A stretch of 32,000 nucleotides of DNA. Origin: Candidatus Auribacterota bacterium. GTDB taxonomy: Bacteria > Auribacterota > UBA6266. Shown in pieces: positions 5,888-27,482 of the stretch. Position 1 is the stretch's first letter; every line of letters begins with the position of its first letter. The stretch lies in contig JAGLRQ010000040.1 in the NCBI GenBank assembly GCA_023136205.1, forward strand, positions 1-32,000. Reading direction: 5' to 3'. The translations under genes and the position numbers were made by a program. A model generated the notes under the pieces. That model did no database searches. It was not told the origin of the DNA and saw only the letters and a list, made by a program, of their open reading frames with translations.

Positions 5888-5907
5888 GGACAACGATTTT
5901 GGAAATA

Positions 5908-8157: not shown

Positions 8158-8192
8158 TTACGGCACCACGTTTAATGGTGCCGTAACTTTTG
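8158..8192 (+). terminator. Intrinsic terminator after glnN
   Basis: Perfect 10-bp stem TTACGGCACC-acgtttaat-GGTGCCGTAA followed by CTTTTGTG. It starts 22 nt after the glnN stop. Confidence 0.75.
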
Positions 8193-8219
8193 TGTAAACG
8201 CTAAATAAAAATATTGATC

Positions 8220-11200: not shown

Positions 11201-12749
11201 GCCTCATCATGACATATATTCGATTGAAGATCTTGCACAGCTGATTTTTGATCTGAAAAATGTAAATCCGAGAGCCCGGATAAGTGTAAAACTTGTGTCT
11301 GAAATCGGAGTTGGAACTGTCGCGGCAGGCGTCGCGAAAGGACGCGCGGATATGATTCTGATCTCCGGCAGTGATGGCGGGACAGGAGCATCTCCGCGAA
11401 GCTCAATAATGCACGCGGGCCTTCCGTGGGAACTTGGCCTGTCAGAAACTCATCAAACCCTCGTTTTAAATAATCTTCGCAGCAGAGTAGTTTTGCAGAC
11501 TGACGGACAAATAAGAACCGGAAGGGATGTTGCTATAGCGGCTCTTCTTGGCGCGGAGGAGTATGGAATTTGTTCTGCCTGTCTGGTTATTCTTGGTTGT
11601 GTGATGTTAAGACATTGCCATTTAAATAACTGTTCTATGGGTGTAGCCACTCAAGATCCTATTTTACGGAGCAGGTTTCGCGGAAGGCCGGAATACATTG
11701 TTACCTATATGAACTTTGTTGCCCAGGAACTTCGCGAGATCATGGCTTCTCTTGGAATAAGAAACCTGGACGACATGATTGGCCGGACGGATTTATTGGA
11801 AGTAAACAAAGATATAATTCCATGGAAAGCTTCACAGATTGATTTTTCAAATATTCTGTATAAACCTGATATTAAAGAGGGAGTAGGTACGTTTTGTAAA
11901 AAAAGGCAAAATCATGGTATTGATAATGTTCTTGATCGCAGGCTTATCAAACTGGCGCGCAGAAGTTTGTTGAACAGGGAACAGATACGCGAAGAGATTA
12001 GCATTTGCAATACTGATAGATCTACCGGAGCAATGTTGAGTGGGGAAATTTGCAGGATTTACGGCGAAGAAGGTTTCCCGAACGACACTATTTATTTTAA
12101 ATTCACTGGTGTGGCAGGCCAGAGTTTCGGAGCCTGGCTTACAAAGGGTGTTACTTTTGAACTGGAAGGTATAACCAATGATTACGTAGGCAAAGGTATT
12201 TCAGGAGGGAAGATAATTATTTATCCGGATAGACGTTCTAAATACAAGGCTCACGAAAATATTATAGTAGGCAATACAAGTTTTTATGGAGCTATAAGCG
12301 GTGAGGCATACATAAGAGGTATCGCCGGTGAAAGATTTTGCGTTAGGAATTCGGGAGTTAATGCTGTTGTTGAGGGTGTTGGGGATCACGGCTGTGAATA
12401 CATGACGGGTGGGAGAATTGTGATATTGGGAAAAACCGGTAGAAATTTTGCCGCGGGCATGTCGGGGGGTATCGCGTATGTATTTGATGAAGACAACATG
12501 ATTGAAAGTAGATGCAATATAAATATGGTTAACATTGATGTGGTTGATGATGAGGATGAGGCAGCGATACATGAACTTGTTCATAATCATTATAAATATA
12601 CTCAAAGCGAAAAGGCAAAAATGATTTTGGGGGATTTTAAGAAGAGTTTGAAAAGTTTCGTTAAGGTAATTCCCGTTGAGTATAAGCGGATTTTGGAAAC
12701 TAAAAAAACAGATGAAAAATTGGGGTTAACAGAGATATCCGATGGGTGA
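8220..12749 (+). CDS. gltB: Glutamate synthase large subunit (GOGAT alpha)
   Basis: About 1510 aa. It has the N-terminal amidotransferase Cys (HDSCGVGF), an FMN/synthase domain (GEGGE, SPPPHHDIYSIEDLAQLI) and a C-terminal GXGXG domain (GDHGCEYMTGG). The start is ambiguous: ATG 8220 or TTG 8214, with no clear SD for either. Confidence 0.95.
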   Translation: MEENQFFKKQGLYDPRFEHDSCGVGFVCNVKGEKTHEIIVQGLKVLKRLSHRGATGSDPETGDGAGILIQIPHDFFAGECGEIKIDLPPPGKYGTGLIFLPVDKKERIFCKKLFSKAVEELGQKVLGWREVPVSESVIGKTAKEIRPVIEQIFISRNENIKDTLDFERKLYLIRKHVENVIRSSKLKQKAFFYITNISCRTFIYKGLLMPSQLERFFPDLGNEKLASSLCIVHSRYSTNTFPSWDLSQPFRFLAHNGEINTLRGNVNWMRAKEGLLNSSYFGEDVEKIKPVIVPGGSDSAALDNVLELLVLSGRSLPHAMMMLIPSAWEQDAFMDEKLRAFYQYHACLMEPWDGPAAIAFTDGTCLGAFLDRNGLRPARYIITKNDLLVMASEVGVLDIDPGDIKVSGRLEPGKMLYVDTEKKKVVDNKELKEEISLGKPYDSWLKKNMARIEDLPEPIYNKSGNKDVIPLLKAFGYTREDLKFIIKPMAENGGEAIGSMGNDTPHAVLSKRPQLVYNYFKQLFAQVTNPPIDPIREELVMSLECYMGTRRNLLDETPLHCGKLKLKHPILSNADLEKIRKINQKGFCSKTISILFKAKDESSFQEALERICLEAAAAIEGNNTFIILSDRGVNKDYAAIPALIAVGAVHQYLVKQGSRSQIALIVESGEPRDVHHFSLLFAFGAGCVNPYMAFDSVEYMIREGMLDTEIEMANKNYINALKKGILKILSKMGISTLRSYRGAQIFEALGLNKEIIEKCFTGTVSRIEGAGMEVIAKETLIRHRDAYCVRGENSNLLPAGGVYQWKKDGEFHLWNPESIAALQDAAKHDDYDKYEEFSCLINDQSNNPATLRSLWKFKKVNPVAIDEVESIHNIFGRFVTGAMSFGSISKDAHESIALAMNRIGGKSNTGEGGEDPSRFVSLRSGHSKRSAIKQVASGRFGVSTNYLVNADEVQIKIAQGAKPGEGGQLPGHKVSVTIASTRYTTPGVTLISPPPHHDIYSIEDLAQLIFDLKNVNPRARISVKLVSEIGVGTVAAGVAKGRADMILISGSDGGTGASPRSSIMHAGLPWELGLSETHQTLVLNNLRSRVVLQTDGQIRTGRDVAIAALLGAEEYGICSACLVILGCVMLRHCHLNNCSMGVATQDPILRSRFRGRPEYIVTYMNFVAQELREIMASLGIRNLDDMIGRTDLLEVNKDIIPWKASQIDFSNILYKPDIKEGVGTFCKKRQNHGIDNVLDRRLIKLARRSLLNREQIREEISICNTDRSTGAMLSGEICRIYGEEGFPNDTIYFKFTGVAGQSFGAWLTKGVTFELEGITNDYVGKGISGGKIIIYPDRRSKYKAHENIIVGNTSFYGAISGEAYIRGIAGERFCVRNSGVNAVVEGVGDHGCEYMTGGRIVILGKTGRNFAAGMSGGIAYVFDEDNMIESRCNINMVNIDVVDDEDEAAIHELVHNHYKYTQSEKAKMILGDFKKSLKSFVKVIPVEYKRILETKKTDEKLGLTEISDG

Positions 12750-14163
12750 TCCAAAAGGGTTTTTAAAAGTTAAACGGCAGGCTTCAGATTTCAGGCCTGT
12801 CTGTGAACGTGTTAAAGATTATAAGGAGGTATTTCAAATACCCTCCGATAAGAAATCGATGGAACAGGCATCCCGCTGTATGGATTGCGGGACCCCTTTT
12901 TGTAATTGGGGTTGTCCTGTCGGAAACTATATCCCGGAATGGAATGATTTTATGTTCCACGGACATTGGGAAAAGGCATATAGACTTCTTGACGCGATGA
13001 ACAATTTGCCGGAAATAACCGGGAGAGTTTGCCCGGCCGCGTGTGAATACGCGTGTGTGCTGGGAGCAAATGATGATCCGGTAACTGTAAGGGAAAACGA
13101 GCTTGCGATTATTGAGTATGCTTTTAAAAAAGGATTTGTAAAACATAGAGTATGCGGATCCAGAACCGGTAAAAGAATTGCTGTTGTGGGTTCAGGCCCG
13201 GCAGGAATCTCGAGCGCGGATCAACTTAACAGATATGGCCATAGTGTTGTCGTTTTTGAAAAAGCTGAAAAGATAGGGGGTATACTAAGATATGGAATTC
13301 CTGATTTTAAGCTTGAAAAGTGGATTTTAGACAGACGTATAAACATCTTAAAAAAAGAAGGAATTAAGTTTATTACCGGTGTTAATGTTGGAATTGATTA
13401 TGGAGTTCCTAAGCTGCTTAAAGAATTTGATGCTGTTTGTCTTGCCGGTGGTTCCCGGGTTCCCAGAGATTTAAAGATAGAAGGAAGGGGCCTAAAAGGC
13501 ATTCATTTCGCGATGGATTATTTGACACAGCAGAATAAAAGGGTTTCAGGGGAAAACTTTTCGGAAGATTTAATAGATGCAAAGGGTAGAAAGGTAGTTG
13601 TTATTGGCGGCGGGGATACCGGTTCGGATTGTGTTGGAACGGCACATAGGCAGGGAGCAAATTGTGTTGTTCAGATAGAGATTATGCCAAAGCCGGAGGG
13701 GTGCCGTACTGATGACTACCCCTGGCCGTCTTATCCAATGATATTAAAAACGTCCACCAGCCATGAAGAAGGGGGAGAAAGGTATTGGTCTCTATTAACT
13801 AAAAATTTTACAGGTAAAAATGGCAGGGTTAGCAAGATTATATGCAAGAAGGTTGAATTCTCTAAGGCCGATAAAAAAGGCTGTTCATTAATGAAAGAAA
13901 TACCGGACAGCGAGTTTGAAATTGATGCCGGCCTTGTAATAATTGCCGCGGGTTTCTTACATGCTTCTCATGGCGGGCTGGTTGATAATCTGGGTGTTGA
14001 AAAAGATGAGCGTGGAAATGTAAAAACCAATGAAAATTTTATGACTTCCATAAAAAATGTTTTTTCTGCCGGCGATATGAGAAGGGGCCAGTCTCTTGTT
14101 GTATGGGCTATTAATGAAGGCAGAAGATGCGCGGAAGCAATTGATAAATTTCTTTTAGGGTAA
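12742..14163 (+). CDS. gltD: Glutamate synthase small subunit (NAD(P)H-dependent)
   Basis: 473 aa. It has Fe-S Cys clusters (CMDCGTPFC..GCPV, CPAACEYAC), a dinucleotide fold VAVVGSGPAGIS, and VIGGGDTGSDC. It overlaps the gltB stop by 8 nt (ATGGGTGA), suggesting translational coupling. Confidence 0.95.
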   Translation: MGDPKGFLKVKRQASDFRPVCERVKDYKEVFQIPSDKKSMEQASRCMDCGTPFCNWGCPVGNYIPEWNDFMFHGHWEKAYRLLDAMNNLPEITGRVCPAACEYACVLGANDDPVTVRENELAIIEYAFKKGFVKHRVCGSRTGKRIAVVGSGPAGISSADQLNRYGHSVVVFEKAEKIGGILRYGIPDFKLEKWILDRRINILKKEGIKFITGVNVGIDYGVPKLLKEFDAVCLAGGSRVPRDLKIEGRGLKGIHFAMDYLTQQNKRVSGENFSEDLIDAKGRKVVVIGGGDTGSDCVGTAHRQGANCVVQIEIMPKPEGCRTDDYPWPSYPMILKTSTSHEEGGERYWSLLTKNFTGKNGRVSKIICKKVEFSKADKKGCSLMKEIPDSEFEIDAGLVIIAAGFLHASHGGLVDNLGVEKDERGNVKTNENFMTSIKNVFSAGDMRRGQSLVVWAINEGRRCAEAIDKFLLG

Positions 14164-14174: not shown

Positions 14175-16790
14175 ATGGATGAGAACTTTAGTACAGGACT
14201 TCCGGATTTGGATAGTATTTTACGGGGGATATGTCCGGGTGATAATGTCGTTTTCCAGGTAGATACTGTAGGGGATTATATTCCATTTGTCCATCCTTTC
14301 TGCGAAAAGGCTCATATGCAGGGCCGGGATCTAATTTATTTTCGCTTTGCCGATCACGAGTATCTTATTCCTAAGGGTGTTTCTGCTCATGTTTATGAAA
14401 TTCATCCGGAGGCCGGCTTTGAAAAATTTATTGCCGAAATTTTTGATGTTATTGAAAAATTCGGTTATGGCGCCTGTTATGTTTTTGATTCTCTTTCCGA
14501 GCTTGCGGTTGACTGGTACAGTGACCGTATGCTGGGAAACTTCTTTATGCTTACGTGTCCTTATCTATATACCTTTGATACGGTCGCGTATTTCGGGCTT
14601 TTAAGGAATCATCATTCTTCATATGCCGTTGATGCCATACACAGCACCGCGCAGGTGGTTCTTGATATTTATCGTAGAAAAAGCGAATTTTATGTCTATC
14701 CTCTTAAAGTATATGAGCGGCATTCTAAAACAATGTATATGCCTCATAAGTGGGATGGTGACAGGTTTATTCCGGAAGTAAGGAGCGCGGCAATCGCGGA
14801 GATACTCGGGTCAGTTTCCCACCCGTGGCTTGATTTTACGATAAACCGTTATGATATCTGGGCCCGAAGCTTTACAGAAGCGCAGGAGATTGTTGACTCG
14901 GGCGCTAACGAAAAGCCGAAAGACTCGAGACAAAAAACCCTGTTTAGCCGCCTTATCCGAATGGTGGTTTCAAGAGACCCGCGGGTTCTGTCTCTTATAG
15001 AGAAATATTTTAACCTGAAAGATGTGGTTAATATAGGAAAACGGATGATAGGTACAGGCCTGATCGGCGGCAAATCTCTCGGGATGCTGCTTGCGCGGTC
15101 TATAGTGAAGAATCAAGATAAAGATTTACATGACAAACTTGAATATCACGATTCGTTTTTTATCGGGTCGGATGTATTTTATACGTATATTATTGAAAAC
15201 GGCTGCTGGTGGGCAAGGCGCGGAATAAAAAGAGAGGGTACATCCTTTAATGGGTTTATGGAAGTCAGACAACGTATGCTTTCCGGTAAGTTCCCGGACT
15301 ACATTAAAAATCAATTTATTGAGATGCTCGATTATTTTGGGCAGTCTCCCATTATAGTCAGGTCTTCAAGCCTTCTTGAGGATGCGTATGGAAACGCTTT
15401 TTCCGGAAAGTACGAGAGTGTTTTTTGCGCGAATCAGGGAACACCCGAAGAACGTCTGGAGAAATTTATAGAAGCTGTTAGAATAGTCTATACGAGCACA
15501 ATGAGCAAAGAGGCGATAGCTTACCGGGCGCGCTGGAACCTGCTGGATCGAGATGAACAAATGGCTATTTTAGTACAGAGGGTTTCTGGCTCTATATATG
15601 GGGATCAGTATTTTCCTCAGGTTGCGGGTGTTGGGTTTTCATTTAATCCCTATGTATGGAGCAATGAAATTAAACCGGAAGAAGGAATGATCCGTCTGGT
15701 TTTTGGTTTGGGGACCCGGGCTGTTGACAGAAGCGGCGATGATTATACACGGCTGGTGGCTTTAAATTCGCCGGACAGACGCCCGGAAGGAAGCCTTGCG
15801 GATGTTAGAAAATACTCTCAGCATCGTGTGGATGTTCTTGACTTACATGATAACCGTTATGTAACGAAAGATTTTGAGGAGGTAGTGCGGGGAGCTCCTG
15901 AATTTGACCCTAAGATGTTTGCTTCCCGCGATAAGGAAGTTGAAAGGAAAGCCAGAGAATACGGAACAAAAAATGTGTTCTCATGGGTTTTGACTTTTGA
16001 CGAGCTTTTATCAGGCACAGGGTTTGTCGGGGATATGGGGAAAATGCTTAAGATTCTTCAAAAAGCTTATAATCATCCCGTGGATGTGGAATTCACGGCG
16101 AATTTTCTGGACGGTTGGCAGGATTATAATATAAACCTGCTTCAATGCAGGCCGTTTCAGATAAAAGGAAATCTGCGGAAAGTCAAGGCCCCGGTATCTA
16201 TAAAGGACGAGCAGGTATTGCTGAAAACAAGAGGGCCGATTATCGGCAGCAGTATTTCTACGACAGTTGACAGAATTATTTATGTTGTTCCTGAAGTTTA
16301 TAGTAAAATGAAGATAACAGACAGATATTCCGTTGCTCGTTTAATCGGACGAATTACCCATCTCAAAGACAAGGGGAAAATACCCAAAATTATGCTTATC
16401 GGCCCGGGGAGGTGGGGAACCACCACGCCTTCTTTAGGTGTGCCCGTTTCATTTGCGGAGATAGATACCGTTTCTGTTATATGTGAAGTCGCGGCTATGG
16501 ATGAAAACCTGATTCCGGATATATCTCTGGGAACGCATTTTTTTAATGACCTTGTTGAGGTAGATATGTTATATCTTGCTGTTTTTCCGGATAAAAAAGA
16601 CAGCGCGATAAACAGATGTTTTTTTAATAACACTAAAAATAAGCTGGCTTCTTTGATACCTGTTGAAAAATTATTTTCTCAGGCTGTAAAAGTAATAGAT
16701 TCCGACAGTATTGAATCAGGCCGGCCGATGTGCCTGAACGCGGATGTCCTTGAACAAAAAGGAATCTGCTATCTAGATGTTAAAAAATAA
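14175..16790 (+). CDS. PEP/pyruvate-binding (PPDK_N / ATP-grasp) domain protein with a degenerate KaiC/RecA-like N-terminal domain
   Basis: 871 aa. The central region has PPDK/PEP-synthase N-domain motifs (IGTGLIGGKSLGMLLA; VRSSSLLEDAYGNAFSGKYESV). The N-terminus GLPDLDSILRGICPGDNVVFQVD resembles the KaiC/RadA GxPxLDxxLGGGxxxG lead-in but lacks a GxxGxGKT P-loop. No recognisable phospho-His swivel or PEP-utilising C-domain is present. Confidence 0.75.
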   Translation: MDENFSTGLPDLDSILRGICPGDNVVFQVDTVGDYIPFVHPFCEKAHMQGRDLIYFRFADHEYLIPKGVSAHVYEIHPEAGFEKFIAEIFDVIEKFGYGACYVFDSLSELAVDWYSDRMLGNFFMLTCPYLYTFDTVAYFGLLRNHHSSYAVDAIHSTAQVVLDIYRRKSEFYVYPLKVYERHSKTMYMPHKWDGDRFIPEVRSAAIAEILGSVSHPWLDFTINRYDIWARSFTEAQEIVDSGANEKPKDSRQKTLFSRLIRMVVSRDPRVLSLIEKYFNLKDVVNIGKRMIGTGLIGGKSLGMLLARSIVKNQDKDLHDKLEYHDSFFIGSDVFYTYIIENGCWWARRGIKREGTSFNGFMEVRQRMLSGKFPDYIKNQFIEMLDYFGQSPIIVRSSSLLEDAYGNAFSGKYESVFCANQGTPEERLEKFIEAVRIVYTSTMSKEAIAYRARWNLLDRDEQMAILVQRVSGSIYGDQYFPQVAGVGFSFNPYVWSNEIKPEEGMIRLVFGLGTRAVDRSGDDYTRLVALNSPDRRPEGSLADVRKYSQHRVDVLDLHDNRYVTKDFEEVVRGAPEFDPKMFASRDKEVERKAREYGTKNVFSWVLTFDELLSGTGFVGDMGKMLKILQKAYNHPVDVEFTANFLDGWQDYNINLLQCRPFQIKGNLRKVKAPVSIKDEQVLLKTRGPIIGSSISTTVDRIIYVVPEVYSKMKITDRYSVARLIGRITHLKDKGKIPKIMLIGPGRWGTTTPSLGVPVSFAEIDTVSVICEVAAMDENLIPDISLGTHFFNDLVEVDMLYLAVFPDKKDSAINRCFFNNTKNKLASLIPVEKLFSQAVKVIDSDSIESGRPMCLNADVLEQKGICYLDVKK

Positions 16791-16808: not shown

Positions 16809-17516
16809 ATGAAAGAAAATGAGAAACAGCTTGAAGCCCTGTTTAAAATAAGCAAGGCGATTGCTTCAGATAATTATCTTGAAGACATTCTTAAACTTAT
16901 AGTCGCGGTTACCGCCCAGGTGATGAACTCAAATATATGTACTTTAATGCTTATTGACGAGCGAAAGAAAGAGCTTACAATACGGGCAACCCAGAGCGTA
17001 AGTGATGAATATAATAAAAAACCCCCAATTAAAATAGGCGAAGGGATTTCAGGCAAGGTCGCGAAAGAAAACAAGCCAATTTCAGTAAAAGATGTCGGTT
17101 TGGAAAAAGAATACAAATATCATGATATGGCTAAAAATGAGGGTTTAAAGTCTCTGCTTTGTGTGCCTCTTACGGTTAAGGGAAAGGTTATAGGCGTTAT
17201 AAATTGTTATACTCCGGTCCCTCATGAATTTTCTTACGGCGAAATCAATATCCTCAAGACTATAGCCCATCAGGCCGCTGTCGCGATTGAAAACACCGAA
17301 CTTATGGTAAAAACTAGGGTTATACAGGAAGAGCTTGAATCAAGAAAAAGAATCGAAAGAGCAAAGGGCATGTTGATGGAAGAAGAAAAATTGACAGAGC
17401 AGGAAGCCTATAACAAGATACAAAAGTTTGCCATGGATAACCGCAAAACCATGAAGGAAATAGCGGAAGCGATGATTCTGGCATATGATATGAGGCAGGG
17501 AAAAAAGAAAAAATAA
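16809..17516 (+). CDS. GAF-ANTAR one-component RNA-binding antitermination regulator
   Basis: 235 aa. The GAF-like region spans aa 20-160 (LEDILKLIVAVTAQVMNSNICTLMLID...GISGKVA...VIGVINCY). The C-terminal ANTAR helices span aa 172-227 (ELESRKRIERAKGMLMEEEKLTEQEAYNKIQKFAMDNRKTMKEIAEAMI). It is the last gene of the gltBD operon. Confidence 0.85.
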   Translation: MKENEKQLEALFKISKAIASDNYLEDILKLIVAVTAQVMNSNICTLMLIDERKKELTIRATQSVSDEYNKKPPIKIGEGISGKVAKENKPISVKDVGLEKEYKYHDMAKNEGLKSLLCVPLTVKGKVIGVINCYTPVPHEFSYGEINILKTIAHQAAVAIENTELMVKTRVIQEELESRKRIERAKGMLMEEEKLTEQEAYNKIQKFAMDNRKTMKEIAEAMILAYDMRQGKKKK

Positions 17517-17576: not shown

Positions 17577-17606
17577 AACCACAAATGAACACAAATCGAC
17601 ACAAAT
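17577..17606 (+). repeat. Decamer-periodic element AACCACAAATGAACACAAATCGACACAAAT (left copy)
   Basis: It has 10-bp periodic ACAAAT units. It matches the reverse complement of 27453-27482 at 26 of 30 positions; three differences are A/G and one is C/T. Confidence 0.75.
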
Positions 17607-17626
17607 TAAAAACAATAGAGAAATAA

Positions 17627-17679
17627 GAAAAGGGAGTTGACCCCCTTTTCCACCCCCTTTTTCCAGACCCCCTTTTCCA
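17627..17679 (+). repeat. Hairpin repeat GAAAAGGGAGTTGACCCCCTTTTCC (left copy) followed by a CCCCCTTTT(T)CCA x3 tandem array
   Basis: 17627-17651 is identical to 19691-19714 apart from one extra C. It has an 8-bp stem GAAAAGGG/CCCTTTTC. The tandem pyrimidine array spans 17641-17679. Confidence 0.8.
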
Positions 17680-17921
17680 TCTGTATAGCTCCGTATTGAT
17701 TCATTGATAGTGTAGTTGTTCAACAAACAGTTGTGAAAAAGCCAAATAAAAGATAAGATAAATTTTATACTAATAGTTGGTTTGCACAAAATACAAAACT
17801 TTGCTAACGTAAGACAGGAAGGTCTTTAGATGTAGGCTTATTCCAGAGCTTTATTATGTATTTATTTTATTACTATCTTTAATGTACGTTATTTGGGGCG
17901 GCTCATTAAAAGGAGGTCTAT

Positions 17922-18200
17922 ATGGAAAAAAAACGGAAGTTCGATCTGAACGAAATTAAAGCTCTCTTGCAGGAAAACGGATATACTATTGCTAGTGGCC
18001 TTAACCTAAGCTATAACACGGCGACTGAAAGTTGTGGTTCTTATTGCACCGGAGGCTGTAGAGGAGGCTGCTATACATGTAGTACTGGAACTTCTAAGAA
18101 AACAACGCAAGTAGTTCAACCTGCTATTCAAATTAGTAGAGAAAACATACTTGATAATATCTTAACAATAACAAATGCACCAGCAGTTCGAAAGAAGTAG
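17922..18200 (+). CDS. Cys-rich 92-aa peptide, candidate RiPP precursor / radical-SAM substrate
   Basis: Strong SD AAAGGAGG 6 nt upstream of the ATG. The central block ESCGSYCTGGCRGGCYTCSTGTS has five Cys spaced x3,x3,x3,x2. It lies directly upstream of a radical-SAM/SPASM gene on the same strand. Confidence 0.6.
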   Translation: MEKKRKFDLNEIKALLQENGYTIASGLNLSYNTATESCGSYCTGGCRGGCYTCSTGTSKKTTQVVQPAIQISRENILDNILTITNAPAVRKK

Positions 18201-18262
18201 AGTTGCTTCTTACTGGTTAAAAGAGATCTGCCGCCCCGAAATTAAATATCAGGAGAATTATA

Positions 18263-19690
18263 ATGAGATATCAACTGCACCACGATATCGGCATGAGATG
18301 TGATGTTGATAGAAATATCATTTATGTAAAAAATCCTGTTGAATCTGAATTGAGTGATTTTCTGCAGACAATTAATTCTGAATTGGCTGTCTTCCTCGGA
18401 CTGATGGATGGTTCTATGGAGATAGACGATGTCGTCCGGAACTGGAGCGAACTATTTTTCGGTACTAAACCTGACCGTGAGATTGGGAAGGTGCTTCAAG
18501 CTATGTTGAAGAGTAAACTCGGCCCGGATCTTCAGGTTCACCAAATATTGAACAAGGTGGATTCAAAGACATTAGGAAGAAGAGACCTCCCCGAAATAAG
18601 CACTCTTATTGTTCCCAAAGAAATCGAAAATATTGACGACCCGAGGCTCAGAATACCTCTCCAGATGCTCTTTATGCCAACGTTGGATTGTACCCAGAAG
18701 TGTTCCTACTGCTATAGCACGGAATCATATTCGGATAATATAAAGGCCCTTGAATTCAAGAGAATACAGGAAATAATGGAAGAGGCGAAAAGGCTTGGTA
18801 TGCACACAATAGATCTTTCCGGAGGAGAACCCGTTAGCTATAGACATTTCTTTCCTCTTCTGGAGAAGCTGTTTGAACTGGGGTTGGAGGTTAATTTGCC
18901 TACCAAATATCCACTCTCGAGAGAGGATGTAAAAAGGCTTAAAGCTATTGGCTTGAAAACGATACAAATAAGCATAGATGCCCTAACCCCAAAGGTTATA
19001 GATAAAGTTGTAGGCCTAAAAGGCTATGGACTAAAGATACTTAAGACACTCGATTACTTAGAAGAAGCGGCGATAGGCGTAAGAACGAACACGGTCATAA
19101 CATCATATACACTCGAAGAAGTAGAGCCCCTTATGCGCTTTTTAGCAACAAAAAAGAATATATACCGTGTAACTCAGTCACCCTATTCTATTTCCAGGTT
19201 TAAACACAAAAGCAAATTTCCAATCAGTAATGAAGAGTATAAAGTTATACTCGAGGCATCAGAAAAGATATTTGAATCGAGGCCCGATATAAGTTTTAAT
19301 CCAGGAGATGTATTCGAACCCTACGAAAAAGTTTCCGTTATCGAACGGGAGAAGAGCTGGGACGAGAGGTCTTTTTGTAGTGGCGGCAGGCAAAATTTTG
19401 CTCTCCTGCCCGATGGCAAAGTTACCATGTGTGAAGAGCTGTACTATCAGCGTCACTATATTATGGGTGACCTTACGGAGCAGTCGATCATGGAGATGTG
19501 GAATTCTCCAGAGGCAAAAAGCATATCCTATCCGCCGAAAGAACTATTTCCCGATGGGCCATGCAGAGATTGTAAAGACCTTGCTGCATGTCACTATTCT
19601 CCCGGAAGGTGCGTTAGAGAGGCTATTAAGCACTTCGGAGAAGATAAACATTATTATCCAGATCCTAGGTGTCCTAAGGCTCCTGTTTAA
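18263..19690 (+). CDS. Radical SAM / SPASM-domain peptide maturase with N-terminal PqqD-like (RRE-like) extension
   Basis: 475 aa with SD GGAG upstream. It has CxxxCxxC at C143/C147/C150 (LDCTQKCSYCY), GGEP (LSGGEPVSY), and a C-terminal Cys constellation (FCSGGRQNFALLPDGKVTMC, GPCRDCKDLAACHYSPGRC, PDPRCP) typical of SPASM auxiliary Fe-S clusters. Confidence 0.9.
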   Translation: MRYQLHHDIGMRCDVDRNIIYVKNPVESELSDFLQTINSELAVFLGLMDGSMEIDDVVRNWSELFFGTKPDREIGKVLQAMLKSKLGPDLQVHQILNKVDSKTLGRRDLPEISTLIVPKEIENIDDPRLRIPLQMLFMPTLDCTQKCSYCYSTESYSDNIKALEFKRIQEIMEEAKRLGMHTIDLSGGEPVSYRHFFPLLEKLFELGLEVNLPTKYPLSREDVKRLKAIGLKTIQISIDALTPKVIDKVVGLKGYGLKILKTLDYLEEAAIGVRTNTVITSYTLEEVEPLMRFLATKKNIYRVTQSPYSISRFKHKSKFPISNEEYKVILEASEKIFESRPDISFNPGDVFEPYEKVSVIEREKSWDERSFCSGGRQNFALLPDGKVTMCEELYYQRHYIMGDLTEQSIMEMWNSPEAKSISYPPKELFPDGPCRDCKDLAACHYSPGRCVREAIKHFGEDKHYYPDPRCPKAPV

Positions 19691-19736
19691 GAAAAGGGAG
19701 TTGACCCCTTTTCCTTTCCTTTTCCTTTTCCTTTTC
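19691..19736 (+). repeat. Hairpin repeat GAAAAGGGAGTTGACCCCTTTTCC (right copy) plus a CCTTT(T) x5 microsatellite; probable terminator of the radical-SAM gene
   Basis: It starts on the base after the TAA stop at 19688-19690. It has the same 8-bp stem as the left copy, followed by a U/C-rich tract (19707-19736). Confidence 0.7.
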
Positions 19737-19933
19737 ATTAGAGAACCGGCAAAATACACCCCCCCAATTTATACTCCCCGGAACAACAAACCCGGAAATA
19801 GGAACGGCTTGAAAGGTTATATGGGAAACACAAGGTAGTTGTATGTTTTGTTCAAATATATTGCTTGTTCATTAATAATGAACATTAGAATAAATTGAAC
19901 AATTCTGGGATATGGTGAAATAATAACTATCAT

Positions 19934-19993
19934 TTGACTTTTGTTCAAAAATAAGATATGTTCACAATAGATGAACATATCAATTATTTGAAC
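19934..19993 (+). promoter_or_regulatory. Promoter with nested GTTCA/TGAAC palindromic operator upstream of the AbiEi-like gene
   Basis: TTGACT (19934-19939), 17-nt spacer, TATGTT (19957-19962). The inner inverted repeat is ATATGTTCA (19956-19964) / TGAACATAT (19972-19980). The outer one is GTTCAAAAATAA (19943-) / TTATTTGAAC (-19993). A further perfect palindrome GTTCATTA-A-TAATGAAC lies at 19867-19883. Confidence 0.55.
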
Positions 19994-20008
19994 AGATTGA
20001 GGTGATAT

Positions 20009-21055
20009 ATGATTGACAAATATACAGAAAATGAAGTTTTTCAAGCTGCCTTGGCTGCCTTTAGAAAAAATCTAGATAGGCCAGTTGACTTTATCGTTGA
20101 CAATGCTGCAGAGCAATATTTGGACCAAAATGTAAGAGTGGATAGAACACTGCAGATAAACCTCGATGGCAAAGAAATTCGCTTTTGTGTTGAGATAAAA
20201 ACAAACATCAATACAGCAACAATTGGTCAATTGTTGAATCTAAAAAATCAGCTTCCTTATCCACTTATGCTTGTTACAAATTATACTAGAGAACATATTG
20301 CAAATCAATTAAGGCAGAATGGAATAGAATTCATTGATACAGCTGGAAATGCTTATATTAATCGGCCTCCCGTTTATATTTTTGTAATAGGAAATAAACC
20401 TCCTGAAGCTTTTATACAGGTTCCGGTTAAACAAGCTTTTAGGCCCACAGGCCTTAGAGTGGTTTTCGCTTTCCTATGCGATCCAAATTTAGTAAATAAA
20501 ACATATCGTGAGATTGCTGATACTGCAGGTGTTGCTCTTGGAAATATTGGATGGATAATGCGTGATTTAAGAAATTTTGGTTTTCTCTTAGAGATGGGAA
20601 AACATAAGTTTAAATTGGTCCAAAAAGAACAACTTTTAAATCGATGGGTTGTTGGATATCAAGAAAAATTAAGGCCAAAACTGTTAATAGGCCGTTTTGA
20701 GGGTGTCTTAGGTTGGTGGAAACAAAAAAATCTTAATTATAAGCATGCTCAATGGGGCGGGGAAGTTGCTGCTGCTAGATTAACGAAATATTTAAAACCA
20801 CAGAATATTATTATCTATGTAAAACAAAATTATCTCAAAGATTTAGTAATAGCAAATAGATTAAAAAAAGATATCCATGGTGAAACAGAAATTTTCAAAT
20901 GTTTTTGGAAACAAATTGGGCAAAATGAATTTCAAGATATTGTACATCCAATTCTTGTTTACGCGGATCTTATGGCAACAGGTGACCGGAGAAACATTGA
21001 AACGGCAAGGATGATTTATGAACAACATATTTTCCGATATATCAAAGAAGATTGA
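20009..21055 (+). CDS. AbiEi-like type IV toxin-antitoxin antitoxin / transcriptional regulator (putative)
   Basis: 348 aa with SD GAGGTG upstream. It has a central wHTH-like segment (YREIADTAGVALGNIGWIMRDLRNFGFL). The C-terminus (AQWGGEVAAARL...ILVYADLMATGDRRNIETARMIYEQ) resembles AbiEi_3-type antitoxins as I remember them. It is paired with a downstream nucleotidyltransferase. Confidence 0.55.
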   Translation: MIDKYTENEVFQAALAAFRKNLDRPVDFIVDNAAEQYLDQNVRVDRTLQINLDGKEIRFCVEIKTNINTATIGQLLNLKNQLPYPLMLVTNYTREHIANQLRQNGIEFIDTAGNAYINRPPVYIFVIGNKPPEAFIQVPVKQAFRPTGLRVVFAFLCDPNLVNKTYREIADTAGVALGNIGWIMRDLRNFGFLLEMGKHKFKLVQKEQLLNRWVVGYQEKLRPKLLIGRFEGVLGWWKQKNLNYKHAQWGGEVAAARLTKYLKPQNIIIYVKQNYLKDLVIANRLKKDIHGETEIFKCFWKQIGQNEFQDIVHPILVYADLMATGDRRNIETARMIYEQHIFRYIKED

Positions 21056-21869
21056 GCCATCTTTTGCTGATGCCCTTTCTGAAGTAAAAAAGATTGCGGA
21101 TGATTTAAGCATTCCTTTTTTCCTTATTGGAGCAAAAGCAAGGGATTGTATACTTGAGTACCATTATGATATTAGATCCCCTCGAGTTACTGAAGACATA
21201 GATATAGCTGTGCTGGTACCAGATTGGGAGAAATACAAAACCTTAACAGATGCCTTGCTTGCCACCAGTAAATTTTCTAAAGAAAAGCAAAAACAAAGAT
21301 ATGCTTACAATGATACCCTTATTGACATAGTTCCCTTTGGCCCTATTTCCGGCAAGAATAAAGAAGTAAAATGGCCTCCGGAATGTGAAGTCATTATGAG
21401 TACTTTTGGCTTTGAGGAAATCTACAAACATGCTATTACCCTTAGACTTCGTGATAACCCGATACTTGATGTAAAAATGCCCACGATTCCAGGGCTGGCA
21501 ATAATGAAATTAATATCATGGAGTGAAAGAAATTCCCCCGAACGGCAAAAAGATGCAAAAGATTTATTATTCATTATGAAAAACTATGAAGATGCTGGAA
21601 TTGAATCTCGTTTATATGAAAAAGAGAGTTCGTTACTCGAGGAAGAAGGGTTTGATAACCAGCTGGCAGGAATTAGGCTTCTTGGGCGTGATATGGCAAA
21701 AATATCTAACGCTGATACTTTAGAAAAAATTAAAGAAATTTTATCTAATGAAACTGGCGATCAAACACAATACGAATTAATATCCAATATGCTTGGCATA
21801 TCGGGCAGTTTTGAAGAAACATTAATGCAATTAGAAAAATTGGAGCAGGGCGTTTCAGAGGTTTTATAA
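21018..21869 (+). CDS. Nucleotidyltransferase-fold protein, AbiEii/AbiGii-like toxin (putative)
   Basis: 283 aa. It overlaps the upstream gene by 38 nt, with AAGGA 6 nt upstream of the ATG. The minimal NTase motif is FFLIGAKARDCIL...RVTEDIDIAVLV (G-x-[SA] ... DxD). Confidence 0.6.
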   Translation: MNNIFSDISKKIEPSFADALSEVKKIADDLSIPFFLIGAKARDCILEYHYDIRSPRVTEDIDIAVLVPDWEKYKTLTDALLATSKFSKEKQKQRYAYNDTLIDIVPFGPISGKNKEVKWPPECEVIMSTFGFEEIYKHAITLRLRDNPILDVKMPTIPGLAIMKLISWSERNSPERQKDAKDLLFIMKNYEDAGIESRLYEKESSLLEEEGFDNQLAGIRLLGRDMAKISNADTLEKIKEILSNETGDQTQYELISNMLGISGSFEETLMQLEKLEQGVSEVL

Positions 21870-22150
21870 AAAGGCTATGGAAGTATGACTAGAAACGAAA
21901 CCCCAAGATGTTTCTATAAAATGAGTTATGTGTTATGAACAACAAAAACCCCGGACTCATAGAACGATTTTTCACCTGGTTATTCGCACCGGTGAATGAT
22001 ATTGTTGAAGATACAACTGATTTAATAGCTGAGAAAGTAAGTAAGAAAATTAAGGAAGATAAGTTGCAGGAAGAAGGGGATGTGGGAAGCGAATAGGAAA
22101 TAGGTGTCTGTCCCTAATTTTTTAATTTTTTCTACTAATTTTTTCTACTA

Positions 22151-22240
22151 CGCAAAAGAAAATCATGCGGTCATGTATGGCAGGGGAGGCCAAGTAAGAA
22201 AAGATAGAAACCGGCAGAAAAAGGCGCTGTCCCCTTTACC
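22151..22240 (+). repeat. 90-bp direct repeat, copy A
   Basis: CGCAAAAGAAAATCATGCGGTCATGTATGGCAGGGGAGGCCAAG...GGCGCTGTCCCCTTTACC. It matches 22532-22621 with a single mismatch (G/A). Confidence 0.85.
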
Positions 22241-22423
22241 CTTTCAAGAAAATACTGAAAGAGCAGGGTGAGATTTTCTTTCGTGCTATCACATCAAAAA
22301 AGGAGAAACAATTTTTAATCGGCGGAGGGTGGAAGTGGTTGTAGGGAAAAAGGGTAATTAAGTGTTGTGTCACCCGATTACCTGCGAAAAAATAAACCGG
22401 GACCTAGTCGGAAAGATAGTTAA

Positions 22424-22588
22424 GTGTTCTGTCCCCGGAATTGCGGAATTGCCCTTGGAACTCCAAACGATAAAGAATCTTTTTCAAAGGCATTCAATAT
22501 CCTTGCTATGAGGTACTCGCAGTATATAAACCGCAAAAGAAAATCATGCGGTCATGTATGGCAGGGGAGACCAAGTAAGAAAAGATAG
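22424..22588 (+). pseudogene. Fragment of an IS200/IS605-like Y1 (RAYT/COG1943-type) transposase gene
   Basis: The frame translates ...GTPNDKESFSKAFNILAMRYSQYINRKRKSCGHVWQGRPSKKR*. The stretch RYsQYiNRk.r..GHvWQGR matches the conserved Y..yfNrr..r.GHlWQGRyks block of this family. The HUH and Tyr regions are missing, so it is a truncated remnant. Confidence 0.5.
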
Positions 22589-22621
22589 AAACCGGCAGAA
22601 AAAGGCGCTGTCCCCTTTACC
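22532..22621 (+). repeat. 90-bp direct repeat, copy B (contains the 3' end of the transposase remnant)
   Basis: See copy A; the two copies are offset by 381 bp. Confidence 0.85.
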
Positions 22622-22643
22622 TTTACCTTTACCTTTACCTTTA
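22614..22643 (+). repeat. Hexanucleotide microsatellite (CCTTTA)x5
   Basis: Five perfect units, counted directly. It lies 65 nt upstream of the ATG of the 526-aa ORF. Copy A of the 90-bp repeat carries only one unit. Confidence 0.9.
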
Positions 22644-22707
22644 CCGGAATTTTTAAAAACGCGATTAATTTTATTGTAAGTTAATCGTCAAGATGATGTG
22701 AGTCGGT

Positions 22708-24288
22708 ATGTCAAATAAGAATAAAAAGCAAAAACGTTTTTCATCAATAAACAAGCATAAACGTGATGGGCGGATGCTTCGTTCTATGCCTGCCGATATG
22801 AAAGTTGACCTAATTGATTGGGAGCGAGATTTGATGCCGGAGCATATTTGGATAGATTTGCTCGCTGAGGAATATAAAGATAAGCCATGGCACAAAATTT
22901 ATGAACATTTTTTAGATGAATTGGATGCTGTTGGAAAAGGTATCCATTTGTTTGGATTGATTTCAGATTTTGGTCTAATCCCTGAAGATGCCCGCAAAAA
23001 ATTCGCATTATCAAAACAGGAGTTGATTTACGAGGCATTTTATAAACCCATCGGTGGCATTTTAAGCTTATATCCAGATAGCCCTGCAAGTTGGATGATT
23101 CTTGATGAGCACAAACAGGCTGATAATATAAACTTTGAGACTGAACTCGCAAGGTTGGCTAATTCCCTCAAAAGACTTATTAAGGCAAAAGATTTATATG
23201 CCGGACATATACGGATGATGCCATTTACAAGAGCAATAAAACATGGATTGGTTAAGATACCCCTTGACGAAAAGGAGATCGATATGCTTACACGATACCC
23301 TACCGGATGCAGTGAGGAGGAGCGGTATTCTATACAACAGCATGCAAGGGTAATAATGAATAGCCAGTATATGATAAACGACATATATCAGAAGAAGGTG
23401 TGGCCGAAATATTTTTGGAGACATAATTATAACTTAGTGCCTTGCCATCCCGTAAAAAAGTCATTGGATAGTGGTGATGATATTGATGTGGGGAAAATGA
23501 AATCTTTGCAAGAGCGAATTTGGACAAACTGTATAAGAATGATGAAATATCTTGATAAAATTGCTCAGCAGTATAAATACGATTTATTCGATCCGTTTAA
23601 GGATGAAATATTACTTGGACTTTTTTCAAGAGTTGTTCGCTTGTATATATCATTTGCCGCGAATCCGTTTTTATGGAATCGAGATCTCTCTGGGCTCATG
23701 TTGCGGTGCATCGGTGAAACAACTATATTGTTCTTTTATTTTGCGAATAAGGCCACTGATGAAGAATTTAGAAATTTTAAGAATTACTCTCAAGGGAAAG
23801 ATAAATTGTTGATGCTTCATTTACAAGATACGTTGTTATACGGCAAGTCTTTAGATGGTAAGAATATTGATCAGATCGCCCAAGATATTGGTGGAGGTTT
23901 GATAGCAGAAATGATGCCAATTGATTTAAAAGGATGGACTACAAAAAACATTCGTGATTTAGCATTGGAAACTGGATTAGAGCGAATTTATCGATGGGTT
24001 ATAGATCCATGTAGCTCTGAATTGCACGGATCATGGTCTAGTCTGCAGAAGTCTAATCTTGTTATTTGTGCCCAGATATTGCATCGTTTTCATAAGGTTC
24101 CGAAATTTTTCGAACCTCCTATAAGATTATTAACCCTATATGTTGCCAAAGAGATTTACTTACAGGCAAAGGAAAATGGCGTAAATAAACTTGGATTTCC
24201 AGAGCCTAATGAGACCTTGGATGAAATAGAGGAAATAAAAGCAGCCTATGACAAAGTGGTTAAAGATTATCAAGAGACAAATGTGTGA
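22708..24288 (+). CDS. Hypothetical 526-aa protein; C-terminal half resembles DUF5677-type helical domain (tentative)
   Basis: A long uninterrupted ORF in an AT-rich island. I recognise no catalytic motif. The segment MLRCIGETTILFFYFANKATDEEF...NIRDLALETGLERIYRWVIDPCSSELHGSWSSL resembles the pattern I associate with DUF5677 proteins found in defence islands. The SD is weak. Confidence 0.6.
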   Translation: MSNKNKKQKRFSSINKHKRDGRMLRSMPADMKVDLIDWERDLMPEHIWIDLLAEEYKDKPWHKIYEHFLDELDAVGKGIHLFGLISDFGLIPEDARKKFALSKQELIYEAFYKPIGGILSLYPDSPASWMILDEHKQADNINFETELARLANSLKRLIKAKDLYAGHIRMMPFTRAIKHGLVKIPLDEKEIDMLTRYPTGCSEEERYSIQQHARVIMNSQYMINDIYQKKVWPKYFWRHNYNLVPCHPVKKSLDSGDDIDVGKMKSLQERIWTNCIRMMKYLDKIAQQYKYDLFDPFKDEILLGLFSRVVRLYISFAANPFLWNRDLSGLMLRCIGETTILFFYFANKATDEEFRNFKNYSQGKDKLLMLHLQDTLLYGKSLDGKNIDQIAQDIGGGLIAEMMPIDLKGWTTKNIRDLALETGLERIYRWVIDPCSSELHGSWSSLQKSNLVICAQILHRFHKVPKFFEPPIRLLTLYVAKEIYLQAKENGVNKLGFPEPNETLDEIEEIKAAYDKVVKDYQETNV

Positions 24289-24427
24289 TCGCAGTTTCGG
24301 GGACACGATACTTAATTGCCCAATAGAGATTAGCCGGGATAATTAGTGACACTTTCCATATTATTGAAAGATTTCCTTACTCTCCTTCCTATTGTAACCA
24401 CTTTTCTTCCATGCTAAAATACCTATC

Positions 24428-25309
24428 ATGAATTTTGATTTTAATCCAAACACAAAAGAGTTTTCATTTAAAAATGCTTTGGTACTTGCTGAAGCATCAG
24501 AATTAGCCTACAAATCTCAGGCGGAATATGAAAAGATTCTTAAAGAAGAATGGGGATTCTCGGATGTTTACCCCTTAGATAAAAAAGAAACCCAGGGTTT
24601 TATTGCTAAAAAAGCTGATATGATATTAATTGCTTTTCGAGGCACGGAAGAAACAAAGAACGAAGATATATTCACAGATATATTAGCGTGCCAGACAAAA
24701 ACAGAACTGGGGAAAGTCCATTACGGATTTTTACGGGCGCTTAAAGCTGTCTGGAAGGATATTGTGACAGCAGTTAAAAATTATCAGGACAACAATCAAC
24801 CTGTATGGATTGCAGGGCATAGCCTGGGAGGGGCTCTAGCCGCCCTTGCCGCAGCTAAGCTTGTATCGATAGATGCATGTCAAAACATTGGTGGGGTATA
24901 TACATTTGGACAACCGATGATAGGAGATAAAGATTTTAAAGAAAAGTTTGAAAAGTTACTTCCAAGCGGAGCTTATAGAGTTACCAACTTTAAAGATCCA
25001 GTTACTTTAGTGCCATTGAATATTAATTTAAAGATATGGGGAAAGCGCATAATTTTCCAATACGATCATGCGGGTAAAATTATATTGTTTAATGAATCCG
25101 GGAAAATAGCTAAATCCGGAGATTTAATTACACGATGGGCGTTAATTTTAGTAGCTGTTTTAGGTTTTTTTGCTGCGTTTATTGTTAAAATGCTAAGAAA
25201 AGTGAAAACACCAGGCGAAATGTTAAAATGGGTTAAAAGTCTGGCAAAACCTCATGGATTAGATCAATATAAAGAAAATATTATTAAGAATTTGGGGTAC
25301 GAGAAGTAA
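24428..25309 (+). CDS. Class 3 lipase-family alpha/beta hydrolase with a C-proximal hydrophobic segment
   Basis: 293 aa. Lipase_3 motifs appear in order: ILIAFRGTE, VWIAGHSLGGALAALAA (nucleophile elbow), YTFGQPMIGD, TNFKDPVTLVP (Asp), PHGLDQY (candidate His). The hydrophobic stretch WALILVAVLGFFAAFIV sits between the Asp and His regions. No obvious SD. Confidence 0.85.
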   Translation: MNFDFNPNTKEFSFKNALVLAEASELAYKSQAEYEKILKEEWGFSDVYPLDKKETQGFIAKKADMILIAFRGTEETKNEDIFTDILACQTKTELGKVHYGFLRALKAVWKDIVTAVKNYQDNNQPVWIAGHSLGGALAALAAAKLVSIDACQNIGGVYTFGQPMIGDKDFKEKFEKLLPSGAYRVTNFKDPVTLVPLNINLKIWGKRIIFQYDHAGKIILFNESGKIAKSGDLITRWALILVAVLGFFAAFIVKMLRKVKTPGEMLKWVKSLAKPHGLDQYKENIIKNLGYEK

Positions 25310-25368
25310 AAAGATTGAAATGGAGGTTCAAATTATTTTTCTTATTGAGCGTGTCGTCAATAAATTAA

Positions 25369-26700: not shown

Positions 26701-26929
26701 GATCTATCCTCTCGTTCTGTTAAGCTGACCGCCTGCAACTAGCTTAACATTACTGATATATAAGAAATTTTCTCTAATATAACATTTTCCATCTATTTTT
26801 TTATATATGCTCAACTACCACATTTTAAGTGGGAGAGCATATGATCGTCAATATAAAATTCAAGCCTAGCCCTGAATTAAAGCTTCTGGATCAAGCACTA
26901 CTACAAAATTCCGATGACACAACACCCAA

Positions 26930-27452: not shown

Positions 27453-27482
27453 ATCTGTGTCAATCTGTGTTCATCTGTGGTT
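27453..27482 (-). repeat. Decamer-periodic element (right, inverted copy)
   Basis: The plus strand reads ATCTGTGTCAATCTGTGTTCATCTGTGGTT. Its reverse complement AACCACAGATGAACACAGATTGACACAGAT matches 17577-17606 at 26 of 30 positions. Confidence 0.75.

Follow-up and report, generated by a model that had tools for sequence, protein, structure and literature searches.

The protein examined here has 235 aa and is encoded in a 32,000-nt stretch of DNA from Candidatus Auribacterota bacterium (assembly GCA_023136205.1, contig JAGLRQ010000040.1, positions 1 to 32,000 of the forward strand; the whole stretch is called the window below). It joins a GAF sensor domain to an ANTAR RNA-binding domain and is very probably an uncharacterised sensor controlling nitrogen assimilation by antitermination. 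Its gene is likely to encode a one-component RNA-binding antiterminator acting on the leaders of nitrogen-assimilation genes. A nitrogen regulon controlled by antitermination, which had been put forward in an earlier reading of this DNA (the original prediction), is well supported computationally by the RNA-contact residues of the protein, by the matches of an independently built covariance model in the window, by the context of the RNA motif across the protein family and by the overlap of that motif with terminators. From this evidence we infer the actual binding of RNA, the direction of the response and the nature of the ligand.

Domain architecture of the regulator

Both the coordinates of the open reading frame (ORF) and the GAF-ANTAR domain call of the original prediction proved exact. 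The gene and the parts of its product are the following:

16809-17516, + strand: GAF-ANTAR regulator gene, ATG start, 235 aa
16878-17291, + strand: GAF sensor domain, residues 24-161 (Pfam)
17235-17387, + strand: long continuous helix running from GAF into ANTAR, residues 143-193, presumed to be a dimerising coiled coil (AlphaFold)
17322-17477, + strand: ANTAR RNA-binding domain, residues 172-223 (Pfam, EutV alignment)

Searches with hidden Markov model profiles matched both domains far above threshold, ANTAR (PF03861) with E=7e-19 and 67.8 bits against a cut-off of 27.3 bits (residues 172-223, profile positions 3-54 of 54), and the sensor with GAF_2 (E=1.1e-22, residues 24-161) and GAF (E=6.9e-21). 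The ATG is preceded at 8 nt by a Shine-Dalgarno-like GGGGA and lies 18 nt past the stop of the preceding gene, and the protein has the same length and sequence as the database entry 'GAF and ANTAR domain-containing protein [Candidatus Aureabacteria bacterium]'. The AlphaFold model, made from a 29-sequence alignment, combines a GAF fold with a helix of 51 residues and, at the C-terminus, a helical bundle; the helices lie at residues 143-193, 197-210 and 215-234 (mean predicted local distance difference test score 84.8, and about 90 across the helical and ANTAR part).

The ANTAR part aligns to Rv1626 (E=1e-10), EutV (E=1e-7), NasR (E=1e-6) and AmiR (E=3e-3). In the EutV-RNA structure the RNA is contacted by Lys143, Tyr164, Arg168, Met172, Asn173, Arg175 and Arg177 (PMC8934654). 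Alignment to this protein (6wsh) identifies K180, Y201, M209 and R212 as the equivalents of Lys143, Tyr164, Met172 and Arg175, and all four are invariant across 29 family members. At the positions of Arg168, Asn173 and Arg177 the regulator carries Q, D and T, of which the first two match Rv1626 and the third probably does too.

Pfam detected no Response_reg, NIT or AmiR_N domain in the regulator, the N-terminus of which is GAF, and only its ANTAR part aligns with 4akk and 1qo0. The regulator is therefore a one-component ANTAR protein, and judged by its domain content it belongs neither to the receiver-type (REC-ANTAR) proteins, such as EutV, GnfR, PdtaR and NasT, nor to the NasR/AmiR-type regulators.

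The leader RNA motif in the window and in related loci

Two genes of the window, glnN for glutamine synthetase (GS) and gdhA for glutamate dehydrogenase (GDH), are preceded by leaders in which two small hairpins, P1 and P2, are combined with an intrinsic terminator:

5860-5865, + strand: TTGACA of the glnN leader, -35-like box, 43 nt before P1 (sequence reading)
5908-5923, + strand: glnN leader P1, GGUAC-AAAGUU-GUACC, loop with A1 and G4
5938-5949, + strand: glnN leader P2, AAC-AAAGGC-GUU
5941-5982, + strand: glnN leader intrinsic terminator, stem and U7 run
6028-8136, + strand: glnN, type III glutamine synthetase, predicted target operon
31560-31565, + strand: TTGACA of the gdhA leader, -35-like box
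31601-31616, + strand: gdhA leader P1, CGCAC-AAUGGU-GUGCG
31636-31647, + strand: gdhA leader P2, GAC-AAAGGU-GUC, wholly within the 5' arm of the terminator
31634-31679, + strand: gdhA leader intrinsic terminator, 16-bp stem and U6
31744-32000, + strand: 5' end of gdhA, TTG start, leaving the window at its right edge, predicted target gene

All four hairpins have A at loop position 1 and G at position 4, and the linker between the minimal stems of P1 and P2 measures 14 nt in glnN and 19 nt in gdhA. Since P2 overlaps the 5' arm of the terminator, which in the glnN leader includes the 3' part of P2, the formation of P2 and that of the terminator are mutually exclusive. The 81-nt glnN segment with P1 and the terminator has a folding energy of -24.4 kcal/mol (z=-3.0), and the 83-nt gdhA segment containing the terminator one of -33.5 kcal/mol (z=-6.2). 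In their sequence and predicted folding, both leaders have the layout by which the ANTAR targets of EutV, NasR and AmiR are defined (PMC3369931). A search of the whole window against Rfam gave no match reaching gathering score, and positions 3400-6100 gave nothing relevant at E<=5.

The motif was followed in 98 related loci, 8 of them from species genomes (single-protein search), 80 from metagenomes (alignment search) and the rest from an exact-protein look-up. Seed sites were obtained with a script that looked for pairs of A1/G4 hexaloop hairpins and an overlapping terminator. MAFFT misplaced P1 when 18 hand-picked sites were aligned, because linker lengths vary, and covariance model R1 was built on the 11 of these sites with 4-bp P1 stems. 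A search of 937 kb with R1 gave 81 matches at E<=1, of which 80 share the strand of the genes. Their consensus joins P1 GCAC-AAGGUUA-GUGC to P2 GAC-AAAGGC-GUU through an A-rich linker, the P1 loop usually having 7 nt and sometimes 6. In the 81-site alignment, which was fitted to the model and so leans towards structure, pairing is kept in 99% of the pair cells, each of the four P1 pairs changes on both sides (41 cells) and the observed covariation score was reached by none of 500 shuffles; the two inner P2 pairs are invariant. Model R2, built from the 81 sites, was run on 873 kb of loci that leave out the window, L001 (a sister locus with 95% identity) and L094 (from a second Aureabacteria metagenome-assembled genome). 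With a threshold of E<=0.05 it found 129 sites, 128 of which lie on the gene strand. An overlapping terminator with a U run, a feature which is itself not part of the covariance model, follows 123 of 133 sites (about 92%) as compared with 130 of 3000 random positions (4%).

Model R3, built solely from the 129 non-Aureabacteria sites, provided an independent test of the window. In a 65-kb search it scored the glnN leader at 30.7 bits (E=6e-5) and the gdhA leader at 27.3 bits (E=3e-4), and apart from these two leaders no match below E=1 was obtained in the window. L001 and L094 also carry the gdhA motif, and its P1 stem, GCAC/GUGC in the window, shows there a compensatory A-U to G-C change (GCGC/GCGC in L001) and a G-C to U-A change at the stem end (UCAC/GUGA in L094). 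The glnN motif is kept in loci L096 and L097, the second P1 pair being changed from U-A to C-G in the latter.

It is highly improbable, in view of these results, that the hairpins represent chance or plain structure beside ordinary terminators and that the GAF-ANTAR gene is an unrelated passenger. In favour of such a reading, the + strand of the window has 21 occurrences of a loose pattern of two A..G.. hexaloop hairpins with 3-bp stems, most of them within genes. Against this stand the E-values of both window leaders with the independent R3, the 128:1 strand bias of the family matches, the covariation of P1, the excess of terminators over random positions and the recurrence of the sites before nitrogen genes, while the compensatory changes in P1 argue against the version in which shared ancestry alone created the pattern.

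The genes behind the sites give the motif its context. GAF-ANTAR genes are preceded by 87 sites, with at least one site at 57 of the 86 genes that have enough upstream sequence and at least two at 25. Further sites lie ahead of glnA (n=7), a Glu_synthase-domain gene (n=5), gltB (n=1) and amt or the porin-like gene preceding amt (n at least 4), and by Pfam others precede genes for GDH, PII, an ECF-sigma-like protein and an NfnA-like protein ahead of a gltD homologue. Occurring before nitrogen genes and before the regulator, the motif thus appears to mark a nitrogen-assimilation regulon that includes the regulator across these phyla. The protein family itself spans Omnitrophota and Aureabacteria and is very conserved: its best 120 homologues are 71-78% identical to the regulator (its own identical entry aside), and 6653 proteins were found at E<=1e-10. 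Across more than 90 loci the neighbours of the regulator are gltB, gltD, glnA/glnN, amt, PII, carAB, purQL, pyrG and nadE, a neighbourhood which by gene annotation is one of ammonium assimilation and glutamine-amidotransferase enzymes, and protein and motif are linked across about 90 loci. A gene of about 525 aa with a Glu_synthase domain follows the regulator in nearly every locus, and gltB, gltD and the regulator are directly contiguous in L004, L009, L010, L017 and L094.

Several side observations were made in the Omnitrophota loci. Many carry a standalone HTH_8 gene of 70-110 aa (resembling the Fis/NtrC C-terminus) by the regulator or between glnA and gltB, for example at 2294-2626 of L009 and also in L017, L020, L022-L024, L028, L029, L036 and others. 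Some carry a second GAF-ANTAR paralogue with 54-63% identity, and in some a 183-aa ECF-sigma-like gene lies behind the RNA motif.

That another ANTAR or RNA-binding protein encoded outside the window, for instance of the REC-ANTAR type, reads these leaders as real attenuators, with the GAF-ANTAR protein being accessory or having other targets, is considered unlikely. The window covers only 32 kb of the genome, the A1/G4 hexaloop recognised by ANTAR is generic so that any ANTAR protein could bind it (PMC3369931, PMC8934654), and in the window the regulator lacks a motif immediately ahead of it, all of which would fit such a reader. Set against it are the motifs directly upstream of 57 of 86 related GAF-ANTAR genes, often in tandem, the finding that every ANTAR gene met in the similarity search or in the four related loci with Pfam annotation is of the GAF-ANTAR type, and the unusual conservation of both protein and RNA motif over the same loci.

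Action of the bound protein mainly on translation or RNA stability, or as a repressor released by its ligand, is in turn quite improbable. In its favour, such a mode of action has been proposed for mycobacterial ANTAR targets, some ANTAR targets of actinobacteria, where GAF-ANTAR is the commonest architecture, are described as overlapping ribosome-binding sites (bioRxiv 10.1101/660928), and signal polarity is not something that can be read from sequence. In the window, on the other hand, the motifs end 79 and 97 nt ahead of the start codons, clear of the ribosome-binding sites.

Gene block, amt leader and surrounding DNA

The nitrogen genes around the regulator and the structures between them are as follows:

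3640-3702, + strand: amt leader attenuator A, diverged candidate (R3 10.7 bits, E=1.9)
3796-3875, + strand: amt leader attenuator B, candidate with non-canonical loops
3881-5254, + strand: amt, ammonium transporter (Pfam)
5336-5677, + strand: PII (GlnB/GlnK) gene
8158-8186, + strand: 11-bp hairpin between glnN and gltB, conserved, with weak U tract
8214-12749, + strand: gltB, large subunit of glutamate synthase (GOGAT)
12742-14163, + strand: gltD, small subunit of GOGAT
14175-16790, + strand: PPDK_N-domain gene, 871 aa, between gltD and the regulator
17626-17651, strand not assigned: terminator-like hairpin closing the gene block after the regulator

The regulator had been described as the last gene behind gltB-gltD. 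It is indeed the final gene of the co-directional block gltB-gltD-PPDK_N gene-regulator, although it does not directly follow gltD, from which it is separated by the 871-aa PPDK_N gene. The gaps flanking this gene are 11 nt and 18 nt, making co-transcription of gltD, the PPDK_N gene and the regulator likely; the regulator is thus probably co-transcribed with gltB-gltD and the PPDK_N-domain gene. The sister locus L001 has the same order, glnN-gltB-gltD-PPDK_N-regulator. The PPDK_N ATP-grasp domain covers residues 296-675 of this protein; its N-terminal part of about 290 aa has no family match, and a phosphoenolpyruvate-utilising His domain was not detected. As its position differs between the window and L001, where it lies between gltD and the regulator, and L094, where it adjoins nadE and gdhA, the PPDK_N gene is seen as a mobile yet persistent companion of nitrogen genes in Aureabacteria.

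In the glnN-gltB gap, P1 and P2 are absent in the window and in L001, only the 11-bp hairpin with its weak U tract being present. Two Aureabacteria genomes were examined in this respect; as far as its upstream sequence tells, the regulator has no own leader in either and would be expressed from the gltBD transcript. Autoregulation through an own leader was consequently rejected for the window, which has no P1/P2 there, and does apply in Omnitrophota. Read-through at the glnN leader might feed the gltB-gltD-PPDK_N-regulator unit, which would give a positive feedback.

For the amt leader, the third one to which the original prediction had assigned hexaloop hairpins over a terminator, the claim did not hold in the form in which it was confirmed for glnN and gdhA, which are canonical, since the amt loops are diverged. 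Attenuator A consists of P1 AAGUAC-AGAGAUU-GUGCUU, with a 7-nt A1/G4 loop, P2 UGC-AAUGGG-GCG (3669-3680) and a terminator at 3675-3696 followed by U7. In attenuator B a P1-like hairpin AAGCAC-GUUGUUG-GUGCUU and a competing hairpin UUGAGC-UCAGGU-GCUCAA (3818-3835) are combined with a terminator at 3826-3869 followed by U6, and the loops GUUGUUG and UCAGGU have G4 and no A1. The amt leader is 85% conserved relative to the sister locus L096, and in the Omnitrophota locus L073 a canonical motif precedes a homologue of the 250-aa gene that follows this leader in L096. The amt leader was therefore kept as a diverged candidate, missed by the models and having a canonical counterpart in L073, and judged from sequence its attenuators may be diverged descendants of the canonical motif. 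Judging by database homologues, the start of amt may lie about 11 codons further downstream.

Two differences from L096 were also observed in this region. In L096 the 250-aa gene, with a signal peptide and a beta-barrel-like product, stands between the leader and amt and is deleted in the window (3406-3914), and a 58-aa ORF after PII is truncated in the window (5679-5740). In L097, L098 and L073, too, amt comes after a homologue of this 250-aa gene.

The leaders of amt, glnN and gdhA each carry a TTGACA box 33-43 nt before P1. A search for sigma54 -24/-12 promoters with up to 2 mismatches gave 11 matches in the window, compared with 19.6 expected, and none in the three leaders. These leaders, as distinct from the rest of the genome, fit sigma70-type initiation with control after initiation, and the sigma54 independence of the regulon, as originally proposed, may be kept as a hypothesis drawn from their missing -24/-12 boxes and their TTGACA boxes. 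A caveat to it comes from the related Aureabacteria contig L098, which encodes a NifA-like sigma54 activator. In this contig (L098 5143-7913) nifH, two PII genes, nifDK-like genes and the gene of this NifA-like GAF-sigma54 activator lie directly upstream of amt-PII-glnN.

GS and Amt are usually induced by nitrogen limitation and GDH is usually favoured by nitrogen excess. The sharing of one motif by GS/Amt and GDH therefore makes the physiological logic of the proposed regulon not self-evident, and several further points weigh against it. The related loci were all chosen for carrying the regulator, so that the sampling itself accounts for part of the linkage between motif and regulator. The amt leader was recovered by none of the three covariance models, its best score being 10.7 bits (E=1.9, 3644-3682), and no motif is found before gltB or the regulator in the window or in L094, nor did L098, which carries amt-PII-glnN, give a match at E<=2. 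Finally, the evidence is comparative and computational, and another ANTAR protein elsewhere in the genome is possible.

The remaining features of the window lie upstream of amt and in an island downstream of the regulator:

725-2413, + strand: ABC1 kinase gene
2414-3406, + strand: patatin gene
17922-18200: gene of a Cys-rich peptide, 92 aa, in the island
18263-19690: radical-SAM/SPASM maturase gene, in the island
20009-21869: AbiEi/AbiEii, in the island
22708-24288: DUF5677 gene, in the island
24428-25309: lipase_3 gene, in the island
25369-26700, - strand: 443-aa ORF with no Pfam match, in the island

About 10 kb between the regulator and ogg (17600-27500) are absent from L001 and L094 and consequently represent an indel island. 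In the sister loci ogg or a flavin reductase-rubredoxin gene comes almost directly after the regulator, followed by nadE and gdhA. The 443-aa ORF had been considered as gdhA and was rejected because it has no Pfam match, the real gdhA starting at 31744. A 25-nt direct repeat, TAAGAAAAGGGAGTTGACCCC[C/T]TTT, present with 96% identity at 17624-17648 and 19688-19712, brackets the peptide and radical-SAM genes, and its first copy is the terminator-like hairpin after the regulator; by its sequence this cassette looks like an insertion that duplicated the terminator. For the 92-aa peptide a weak similarity to the 'Cys-Xaa-Xaa-Xaa repeat radical SAM target' family was obtained, which stays below the cut-off (E=5e-4). 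In the intergenic region ahead of the DUF5677 gene, a 93-nt direct repeat occurs in two copies (22151-22243 and 22532-22624) which are 98% identical and 381 nt apart.

Sensor, proposed mechanism and place among known ANTAR systems

The solved sequences nearest to the GAF domain are those of the Geobacter GAF 3e0y, the PtsP/EI-Ntr GAF domains 3trc and 3ci6 and Aquifex Nlh1, with phmmer E-values of 2.4e-14 for 3trc, 8.6e-13 for 3ci6 and 7e-13 for Nlh1, a NifA-like activator. Foldseek likewise puts PtsP GAF domains first (3trc, E=2e-13, template modelling score 0.85). No NCBIfam model covers the whole regulator, and the partial matches to PtsP (PRK11061, E=1.5e-19) and NifA (E=7.7e-14) are far under the whole-protein cut-offs, as is expected for a match of one domain only. 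The GAF domains of PtsP (EI-Ntr) and NifA are consequently the closest to the sensor of the regulator, PtsP by sequence and fold and NifA by sequence, while their outputs differ, being a phosphotransferase of the phosphotransferase system (PTS) or a sigma54 AAA+ activator as compared with ANTAR here.

The GAF domain of PtsP/EI-Ntr responds to glutamine and 2-oxoglutarate and that of NifA to 2-oxoglutarate. This gives a lead for the ligand, but since the identity of the regulator's GAF domain to theirs is only about 25%, the ligand cannot be transferred. 2-Oxoglutarate is the co-substrate of GOGAT and GDH and signals nitrogen need for GS and Amt. It is favoured for this reason, the GOGAT and GDH genes being linked to the system, and 2-oxoglutarate as activator and/or glutamine as inhibitor is put forward by analogy as a tentative best guess for the ligand. 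The nitrogen PTS has been linked to glutamine availability (for example PMC4848567).

According to the mechanism proposed, the GAF domain would sense a small molecule reporting the nitrogen/carbon status, and the long helix, probably as a dimeric coiled coil, would relay the signal to the ANTAR three-helix bundle. The active protein would then bind P1 and P2 through their A1/G4 loops on the nascent leader RNA. As P2 is made from the 5' arm of the terminator, binding of the protein would prevent terminator formation and RNA polymerase would read through. The direct targets in the window would be the glnN and gdhA leaders, with the amt-PII leader as a possible diverged target.

The best comparison is EutV/EutW of Enterococcus faecalis (PMC3369931, PMC8934654), with which the system shares an ANTAR output with the same RNA-contact residues, a coiled coil ahead of the ANTAR domain, two small A1/G4-loop hairpins with P2 over an intrinsic terminator, and several attenuators forming a regulon. 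EutV/EutW differs in being a REC-ANTAR response regulator acting on ethanolamine utilisation, whereas here GAF is in the same polypeptide, with no receiver, kinase partner or phosphorylation, and the predicted targets are central nitrogen-assimilation genes. Unlike in EutV/EutW, the P1 loop has 7 nt (AAGGUUA) in most Omnitrophota copies, compared with 6 nt in the window. NasR of Klebsiella oxytoca (NIT-ANTAR; PMC7496416) is likewise a one-component protein with a ligand domain fused to ANTAR and acts by leader antitermination related to nitrogen; its NIT sensor, however, responds to nitrate/nitrite and its target is a single nitrate-assimilation operon, not GS, GDH or Amt.

The dual-hairpin ANTAR target was defined by Ramesh et al., who also placed predicted ANTAR regulons before the PII, amt, GS and glutamate synthase genes of many bacteria (PMC3369931). 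For Desulforudis and Carboxydothermus they predicted autoregulated clusters in which an ANTAR response regulator occurs with GS and glutamate synthase (Table S2), and in the Firmicutes predicted ANTAR regulons of GS/GOGAT/amt genes are given for Desulforudis (Daud_2028), Carboxydothermus and Desulfotomaculum (Table S2 and Fig. 9 of PMC3369931). GnfR of Geobacter (GnfK/GnfR) is a characterised REC-ANTAR nitrogen antiterminator (PMC2995071). These predicted Firmicutes regulons and GnfK/GnfR resemble the present case in having motifs before GS, glutamate synthase(-like), PII, amt and their own regulator genes, but their regulators are of the receiver type and belong to other phyla, whereas here a GAF fusion goes with its own tightly conserved P1/P2 consensus. 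The actinobacterial GAF-ANTAR proteins, such as SCO7423, have the same two-domain architecture and are likewise uncharacterised; they differ in that no nitrogen-gene context is reported for them and that their ANTAR RNAs are proposed to act on translation (bioRxiv 10.1101/660928, PMC12838073). GAF-ANTAR proteins were described as uncharacterised in papers of 2012 and 2020, a 2019 preprint calls GAF-ANTAR the commonest mycobacterial ANTAR architecture with function not assigned (bioRxiv 10.1101/660928), and SCO7423 is still of 'unknown function' in a 2026 paper (PMC12838073). Literature searches, in which 'antar' mostly gave 'Antarctic', returned no prior account of GAF-ANTAR function, of ANTAR in Omnitrophota or Auribacterota, or of ANTAR with 2-oxoglutarate. 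The principle of nitrogen control by ANTAR is thus already known, and it is the sensor and the lineage that are new.

Taken together, the link between ANTAR and nitrogen metabolism dates from 2012, the studied ANTAR members being only of the receiver type (EutV, GnfR, NasT, AmiR), the NIT type (NasR) and the LOV type (PAL). GAF-ANTAR, among the commonest architectures, gains from the present results a testable job, with an RNA target known from more than 130 instances with covariation, a regulon comprising GS, GDH, Amt/PII, GOGAT-type genes and the regulator itself, and a shortlist of ligands. With a regulator of 235 aa and an RNA element of about 40 nt plus terminator, the system would be easy to reconstitute and might serve as a metabolite-responsive RNA switch. 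A broader reading, to which somewhat less than even weight is given, is that GAF-ANTAR, together with the P1/P2 RNA, governs ammonium assimilation in Aureabacteria and Omnitrophota as its master regulator, binding 2-oxoglutarate and/or glutamine directly and acting on its own gene as well. If so, this regulator would antiterminate GS, GOGAT-like, GDH, Amt/PII, glutamine-amidotransferase and ECF-sigma genes together with its own, would fill the role of NtrBC/sigma54, GlnR, TnrA or NrpR in other lineages and would be the first GAF-ANTAR protein with a ligand and a regulon assigned. The results offer a first view of how nitrogen assimilation may be controlled in two uncultured phyla.

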